A DNA stretch of 64,000 nucleotides from a virus. The DNA lies in IMG/VR virus record IMGVR_UViG_3300017780_002571, positions 1 to 64,000 of that record; one strand, written 5' to 3'. The notes under the pieces were generated by a model. It saw nothing but the letters and a program-made list of their open reading frames with translations, ran no database searches and was not told the origin of the DNA. Position numbers and translations under genes: made by a program. Of the stretch, positions 10,987 to 11,098 are shown one piece after another (the first letter of the stretch is position 1; the number at the start of each line of letters is the position of its first letter).

Positions 10987-11098
10987 TGGTGGGTCGCCGT
11001 TGGTTTCCTCGTCTTCGCCTCTAGCACAGCGGGATGCCTCCCCTGTGTATCACTCATGACTGCTGTACTCCCAACGGCTGGGGCGCTACCCCGGACCC
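10987..11098 (-). ncRNA. Second CCA-ended structured RNA (112 nt)
   Basis: 5' GGGTC / 3' GACCC-A-CCA stacked on GCCGTTGG/CCAACGGC; GGGG/CCCC hairpin; AGTACAGC/GCTGTGCT branch. Confidence 0.6.

Follow-up and report, generated by a model that had tools for sequence, protein, structure and literature searches.

Two stable RNAs of 100-140 nt, species 1 and 2 (rnaC and rnaD), belong to the tRNA cluster of phage T4, where they are made together with the tRNAs via the tRNA-processing route; their function is unknown. A tRNA look-alike can also sit within a long transcript as a cutting mark for RNase P and 3' enzymes, as mascRNA does in MALAT1. Plant mitochondrial t-elements are tRNA look-alikes of this kind, marking longer transcripts for cutting by RNase P and 3' enzymes (PMC1920247). 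Phages supply non-tRNA substrates of RNase P as well, namely the precursor of the C4 antisense RNA of P1 and P7 and the M3 RNA of phi80 (PMC11143913). Host RNase P generates the 5' end of both these phage RNAs because their end helix, together with a 3' CCA-like tail, imitates an acceptor stem. The same source also cites a 1978 catalogue of tRNA-like T-even RNAs, and acceptor/T-stem minihelix and hairpin model substrates have been described by McClain, Guerrier-Takada and Altman (PMC11143913).

The module considered here, RNA-2, comes from an uncultured phage represented by an IMG/VR record of 102,276 bp with direct terminal repeats, the first 64 kb of which form the window (the whole stretch of DNA analysed, 64,000 nt). 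Judged by its sequence, RNA-2 would belong with the phage tRNA-like substrates of RNase P. It differs from the C4 and M3 RNAs in that its acceptor end is an exact copy of that of tRNA-Lys, placed on two or three bodies within one array, and in that its processing is a prediction. Its likeness to T4 species 1 and 2 is one of description, and those RNAs have true tRNAs beside them whereas this phage has none. With the minihelix models it shares a coaxial rod of 12-13 bp, the G+1/C72 pair, the RCCA tail and a U at -1; unlike them, it has no T-loop at the far end, carries a branched interior of 67 nt, and has its 5' strand broken after 5 bp by a side hairpin. The t-elements and mascRNA, finally, are organellar or eukaryotic and have their CCA added, whereas the CCA of RNA-2 is encoded. 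The features of the locus, in the direction in which the RNA reads, are as follows.

11491-12117, minus strand: HU-like gene directly upstream of the array (Pfam Bac_DNA_binding, 2.8e-18)
10421-11490, minus strand: ORF-free gap of 1070 nt (~1.07 kb), an array of abutting self-closing RNA modules (minimum free energy, minus versus plus strand)
11099-11101, minus strand: UUU leader just 5' of G+1, identical to the UUU ahead of RNA-1 (sequence)
10987-11098, minus strand: RNA-2, a 112-nt module GGGUC...GACCC-A-CCA reading from 11098 to 10987 (sequence, fold z, pair probabilities)
11094-11098, minus strand: 5' strand of helix P1, GGGUC, paired with 10991-10995; equal to positions 1-5 of tRNA-Lys (E. 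coli lysT) (fold)
11080-11092, minus strand: side hairpin GGGGU-AGC-GCCCC with loop AGC, one unpaired base on each side, in the place of a D arm (fold)
11071-11078, minus strand: 5' strand of helix P2, GCCGUUGG, paired with CCAACGGC at 11003-10996; 8 bp, perfect (fold)
11004-11070, minus strand: branched 67-nt interior with inner hairpin CACAG-GGGA/UCCC-CUGUG and no T-loop (fold)
10987-10995, minus strand: 3' strand of P1, GACCC, then discriminator A and CCA; equal to the 3' end of tRNA-Lys
10915-10986, minus strand: 72-nt hairpin (16-bp stem) filling the interval from the RNA-2 CCA to the RNA-1 G+1 (-31.8 kcal/mol, z -6.3)
10779-10914, minus strand: RNA-1, a 136-nt tRNA look-alike with an 8-bp acceptor, a 5-bp T stem, the loop UUCAACU and ACCA (sequence, fold, pair probabilities)
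10550-10672, minus strand: possible third, decayed handle copy GGGUC...GACCC-ACC-C, inside a 230-nt domain (10543-10775)
9635-10420, minus strand: radical SAM gene directly downstream of the array (Pfam Radical_SAM, 8.6e-15)

The interval 10421-11490 is the sole large ORF-free gap in a tightly packed genome, as judged over the whole record. The genes around RNA-2 lie on the minus strand, and those near the array code for an exonuclease, a helicase, ParB-like and Asn-synthase/QueC-like proteins, the HU-like protein and the radical SAM protein. The gap as a whole folds better as minus-strand RNA, at -425.8 kcal/mol versus -379.0 kcal/mol for the plus strand, a difference of 47 kcal/mol. The first RNA module follows the HU stop codon at a distance of 3 nt; a sequence scan of the interval from that stop to RNA-2 found neither a promoter-like site nor a minus-strand terminator-like site. 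At the other end of the array, just before the likely ATG of the radical SAM gene (10384), lie a small GC hairpin and, directly behind it, a U-rich tract (10404-10419, minus strand), which together could be a terminator or attenuator. Further upstream, at 12198-13133 of the window (minus strand), lies a gene for a phrog_17202 protein, some GenBank phage homologues of which are labelled 'putative ribonuclease E/G family protein'; Pfam RNase_E_G matches neither this protein nor anything else in the whole genome. The whole genome also gave no Pfam match for a CCA-adding enzyme (PolyA_pol), RVT_1, TROVE or RtcB, and a six-frame Pfam search of it for CsrA, a short model, gave none at E up to 1. With default settings ARAGORN calls no tRNA gene in either the window or the whole genome.

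The first-pass annotation, made from the letters of the window, had claimed for 10987-11098 an RNA with a 5-bp terminal helix stacked on an 8-bp helix, a GGGG/CCCC side hairpin, and a branched interior without a T-loop. All of these features were found, with the RNA reading on the minus strand. P2 runs without interruption into P1 on the 3' strand, so that the 13-bp stack is real; the side hairpin is present at 11092-11080 as GGGGU/GCCCC, and the interior spans the 67 nt from 11070 to 11004. P1 itself has only 5 bp, the hairpin branching from the 5' strand at base 6. The ACCA occupies 10990-10987 and is followed by an A. RNA-2 has a minimum free energy of -47.0 kcal/mol (z -3.34), and none of 200 shuffled sequences folded as well; the complementary strand reaches -42.4 kcal/mol (z -1.39). 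Pair probabilities were computed in contexts ranging from the 112 nt of the module up to the full gap of 1070 nt. P2 keeps values of at least 0.96 throughout, the side hairpin lies at 0.84-1.0, and P1 varies between 0.5 and 1.0, dropping to about 0.5 when the identical helix of RNA-1 shares the molecule. The pairs of P1 and P2 are all Watson-Crick, and these two helices alone do not discriminate between strands. Taken as a whole, the fold of RNA-2 is robust and strand-specific, and favours the minus strand.

The ends of RNA-2 recur in its neighbour. The annotation's further claim, that the UUU|GGGUC start and the GACCC-A-CCA end are held in common with the adjacent tRNA look-alike, agrees with what we see: RNA-1 (10914-10779, fold z -3.8) has the same start, UUUGGGUC, and the same end, GACCCACCAA, as RNA-2. 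The two agree over 8 nt at their 5' ends and in 12 of 13 nt at their 3' ends. In a repeat-unit comparison they had only chance 9-mers in common elsewhere, their interiors being unrelated. By our own estimate, chance alone would place another 8-mer and 10-mer of this kind, correctly ordered and no more than 500 nt away, about 4e-7 times. The common handle is thus real and far beyond chance, and, as a pattern in the sequence, it would fit selection on the ends. The 72-nt hairpin fills the space between RNA-2 and RNA-1 exactly, and therefore the three modules abut without a linker (CCA|A-hairpin-U|G); the hairpin would be freed as 'cargo' if both of its neighbours were processed. The module closed by the possible third handle copy folds no better than shuffled sequences (z -0.36). 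Within RNA-1, 14 bases around the top of the second hairpin (10818-10831, minus strand) are perfectly complementary to positions 76914-76927 (plus strand) of the genome, outside the window, a match of which about 0.1 would be expected by chance, and a search for antisense targets gave only complementarities of 13-14 nt, near chance level.

The handle has a recognisable counterpart. The E. coli tRNA-Lys gene lysT reads GGGTCGT...ACGACCC-A-CCA-A, and its ends equal the handle, including the A that follows the CCA. To what extent this is peculiar to tRNA-Lys was seen in a scan of 185,579 species genomes, in which 81 loci had a T-loop motif with GTGACCCACCA behind it. Among the 61 tRNAs found by GUGACCCACCA together with the T-loop motif, 59 are tRNA-Lys by ARAGORN call, and the loci other than these 61 are chance matches in coding sequence. 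Most of these tRNA-Lys belong to Desulfovibrionaceae. They open with the eight bases GGGTCACT, as does RNA-1, the acceptor of which is that of Desulfovibrionaceae tRNA-Lys(CUU). The exact 3' end of RNA-1 occurs in none of the GTDB species genomes, and 20 kb of the phage DNA gave no match in 301 Desulfovibrionaceae genomes. Among 102 distinct tRNAs in the loci that we collected, a biased sample, the GGGTC/GACCC+A handle is carried by 20 tRNA-Lys, by two odd 'Phe' calls and by none of 78 other non-Lys tRNAs; the tRNA-Lys(UUU) of Marinobacterium and of Microbulbifer carry it too. From these sequence comparisons, the handle of both RNAs is the acceptor end of bacterial tRNA-Lys in particular, beyond merely acceptor-like, an assignment that is new here. 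RNA-2 has in common with tRNA-Lys (E. coli lysT) the pairs 1-72 to 5-68, A73, the CCA and the A after it; unlike tRNA-Lys, it has no D arm, anticodon arm or T arm, and is missed by both ARAGORN and Rfam.

Described RNA classes that could account for such a module were rejected in turn. A canonical tRNA is excluded by the default ARAGORN run (0 genes), by Rfam (nothing relevant even at E up to 10) and by the lack of a cloverleaf; relaxed ARAGORN settings gave only poor, mismatched calls, none of which spans RNA-2. Of a tRNA acceptor (a 7-bp stem, discriminator base and CCA), RNA-2 has 5 bp, A73 and CCA, with the helix going on as P2 on the 3' strand only. RNA-2 is not a tmRNA either, its third pair being G3-C70 rather than G3-U70 and a T-loop being absent; ARAGORN calls no tmRNA by default and only spurious ones at low thresholds. 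The large, ornate phage RNAs (GOLLD, ROOL and others) have no Rfam match in the window at gathering scores, and at E up to 10 the interval 10300-11600 gave two chance-level matches, neither of them relevant. A bacterial Y RNA or YrlA was set aside, TROVE having no match in the genome and Rfam giving none either, and likewise a retron msr-msd or DGR template, RVT_1 having no match in the whole genome.

RNA-2 carries the signature of an RNase P substrate, in that U-1, the preferred base there, the G+1-C72 pair and A73-C74-C75 are all present; in such substrates the 3' RCCA tail can pair with the GGU of P15. A T-stem-loop capping a 12-bp stack, the element that contacts the S-domain of RNase P, is absent, the 13-bp stack of RNA-2 opening instead into a multibranch loop. 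Bacterial RNase P reads the U at -1, the G+1/C72 pair and the A73-C74-C75 tail, and also cuts hairpin models that lack a T-loop, pre-4.5S RNA, and the phage M3 and C4 RNAs, but with loss of the T-loop its efficiency is lower and the cut may shift (PMC11143913). Lacking a T-loop, RNA-2 would therefore be a plausible substrate, weaker than RNA-1.

Our preferred reading, held tentatively, is that RNA-2 is a tRNA-Lys-derived, acceptor-mimicking module of the 1.07-kb array behind the HU-like gene, and that it is set free when host RNase P cuts its 5' end and its 3' end is trimmed. The array would be transcribed on the minus strand by read-through from the HU-like gene, as we infer from the 3-nt distance between the HU stop and the first module and from the empty promoter and terminator scan described above. 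The ends of RNA-2, copied from the acceptor end of tRNA-Lys, would stack on the 8-bp helix to give a 13-bp acceptor-like rod without a T-loop, and host RNase P would then cut between U-1 and G+1. The bases after the two CCAs are A/U-rich (AAUAG and AGUUU), and A/U-rich bases in this position fit entry by an endonuclease such as RNase E, with subsequent trimming to the CCA. The 3' end would be made in this manner, by an endonuclease cut in those bases and exonuclease trimming, and the predicted products are a stable, CCA-ended RNA-2 of 112 nt, the 72-nt hairpin and the 136-nt RNA-1. The handle itself would most likely go back to a tRNA-Lys gene once carried by the phage, the copies of which kept their ends after duplication while their bodies were replaced.

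The first-pass annotation had also suggested a common processing or charging enzyme for the two RNAs. The sharing of the handle and a common processing route fit the RNase P determinants found in RNA-2, while the charging part is weakened by the missing anticodon arm. The anticodon together with A73 confers lysine identity, and efficient lysylation needs continuous acceptor and anticodon domains (PMC9976931). Charging of RNA-2 with lysine is therefore unlikely, as it has no anticodon arm.

Release as a processed module is also weakened by the shortness of P1, which has only 5 bp and is interrupted at base 6, by the loss of the T-loop, which weakens cutting by RNase P, and by the distribution of the element, of which no homologue was found and which the nearest relatives lack. 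A blastn search with the gap against GenBank phages returned no homologue; exact 17-mer and 27-mer scans of IMG/VR gave only chance matches of 17-18 nt, and a two-gap pattern for the full layout of RNA-2, spacer and RNA-1 gave no match. BLAST and a covariance model found no RNA-2 homologue in the full records of three relatives (G001-G003) or in other loci. Searches of IMG/VR and of GenBank phages with the neighbouring radical SAM gene were empty as well, and a metagenome scan with an HU alignment brought up generic bacterial HU genes only; relatives of the HU-like gene with 60-74% identity are present on Logan/ENA contigs. The closest relatives compared are G001 and G002, with 63% and 52% amino-acid identity, respectively, in the phrog_17202 gene. 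G001 has apparently coding sequence at the corresponding place.

In G002 (IMGVR_UViG_3300010357_000188), the same place behind the HU gene is taken by a 650-nt, ORF-free, strongly folded gap (L004:7547-8195), a chain of abutting self-closing modules without CCA ends and without sequence similarity to the array. This comparably structured gap speaks for the main rival to the released-module reading, in which RNA-2 would be a folded domain of one large structured RNA, or of a long structured 3' or 5' UTR, covering 10421-11490. The ACCA and UUU would then be junction linkers, and the common ends would be left from an internal duplication. That the whole gap of our phage is likewise a chain of abutting self-closing domains, and that the third handle copy is buried in a larger domain, point the same way. 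Two identical 5-bp helices in one molecule, however, invite mispairing (the source of the fall of P1 to ~0.5 with both present), linkers hardly explain why a tRNA-Lys end, a CCA and U-1 should have been kept twice amid divergence, and no known large-RNA family matches. We regard a single large RNA as a serious contender, if a somewhat unlikely one.

A different view of the same handles is that RNA-1, RNA-2 and the third copy are decaying relics, functionless pseudogenes of a former phage tRNA-Lys cluster. The handle is indeed that of tRNA-Lys, the genome has no working tRNA, and the third copy is poorly folded. Neutral decay should, however, erode the ends as fast as the bodies, and in this array unrelated bodies are framed by ends that still agree over 8 nt and 12 of 13 nt; the replaced bodies are unusually well folded (z -3.3 and -3.8), and this is the only large non-coding stretch retained in a tightly packed genome. 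Relics of this kind therefore seem improbable.

Slightly less probable still is an explanation at the DNA level, with TTGGTGGGTC and GACCCAAA as protein-binding, origin or recombination sites of a control region beside replication genes. The gap does sit among HU, exonuclease and helicase genes, and TGGTGGGTC recurs in one orientation at spacings of 208 and about 229 bp. Against this stands the strand preference described above, with a minus strand of the gap better folded by 47 kcal/mol and an RNA-2 that is itself strand-asymmetric. Moreover, every motif is matched by a second one, so positioned that the two close a well-folded module. The motifs are short for iterons, and the 9-mer is no commoner in the window than in shuffled sequence. 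That the locus encodes a small protein is very improbable, for although short open frames are present, they lack a ribosome-binding site and run over module borders; one of them, a 77-aa frame at 10875-11108 (minus strand), starts with TTG, has no Shine-Dalgarno-like sequence ahead of it and crosses three separate folded modules.

An analogue of the array comes from another phage. When tandem pairs of long modules bearing the Lys handle were sought by pattern, a single real match emerged, on an 8-kb IMG/VR phage contig (L203), a result that does not measure frequency since the handle was required by the pattern. In L203 a spacer of 72 nt separates a true tRNA-Lys(UUU) from a 115-nt RNA behind it with GGGUC...GACCC-ACCA ends (6895-7009), which keeps D and T arms around an aberrant middle and for which ARAGORN makes no call. 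L203 has no sequence or protein relationship with the phage of RNA-2. Its RNA resembles RNA-2 in having the same handle on a body to which ARAGORN is silent, 72 nt from another RNA with that handle; it differs in keeping the D and T arms and in lying behind a true tRNA-Lys(UUU). L203 shows that remodelled tRNA-Lys copies exist and, by analogy, that one possible origin of RNA-2 would be duplication of a phage tRNA-Lys followed by remodelling of the body. The order of genes at L203:6895-7156 (minus strand) is tRNA-Gly, tRNA-Lys(UUU), spacer, 115-nt RNA, a 92-nt tRNA-Ile(UAU) and tRNA-Thr(UGU).

Other tRNA-like phage loci were seen along the way. At L208:5408-5441 (minus strand), shortly after a phage tRNA-Met, lies a 34-nt minihelix, GGGUC-GCAGG-UUCAAGU-CCUGC-UGG-GACCC-ACCA, the T stem of which is that of E. 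coli tRNA-Lys and the T-loop of which differs at two bases. A set of tRNA-like genes of about 90 nt lies on the plus strand in IMG/VR phages (L202:2423-2514, L205:7163-7254, L206:2517-2606 and L209:2435-2525), most of them with an 8-bp acceptor, an anticodon-type loop CUGUAAA (UUGUAGC in L205) and a long extra arm. None of these genes is called by ARAGORN, which labels a similar one in L204 tRNA-Tyr.

As to function, phage tRNA genes are now regarded as a means of countering those host defences by which tRNAs are cut or modified. Acceptor ends of tRNA-Lys on non-tRNA scaffolds might act against such defences as decoys or sponges, being uncharged, CCA-tailed and barred from translation, and might thereby take up a host factor that recognises the acceptor stem and the tail, a role that we consider unlikely. 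By analogy, conceivable targets are tail-cutting nucleases of the Cas12a3 type, toxSAS enzymes, or an unknown defence specific for tRNA-Lys. Cas12a3 accepts truncated substrates consisting of the acceptor plus CCA (PMC12851939). The toxSAS enzymes, FaRel2 among them, inspect the acceptor stem and modify the CCA end (bioRxiv 10.1101/2024.07.05.602228). AriB of the PARIS system is not a candidate, because it reads the anticodon stem and D-loop (PMC12409363). If the decoy role were true, a tRNA-less phage would shield the tRNA pool of its host by mimicry rather than by replacement.

What can be said of this phage is that, without any tRNA gene of its own, it keeps the exact acceptor end of tRNA-Lys, with the CCA, on at least two unrelated and well-folded RNA bodies. 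If the modules are not released, what is left is a structured orphan RNA in which a junction motif has been duplicated. If they are released, they would be natural 'acceptor-only' RNAs, and would offer a direct way to learn what a lone tRNA end does in a cell, whether it marks an RNA for processing, caps and stabilises it, or acts as a decoy.
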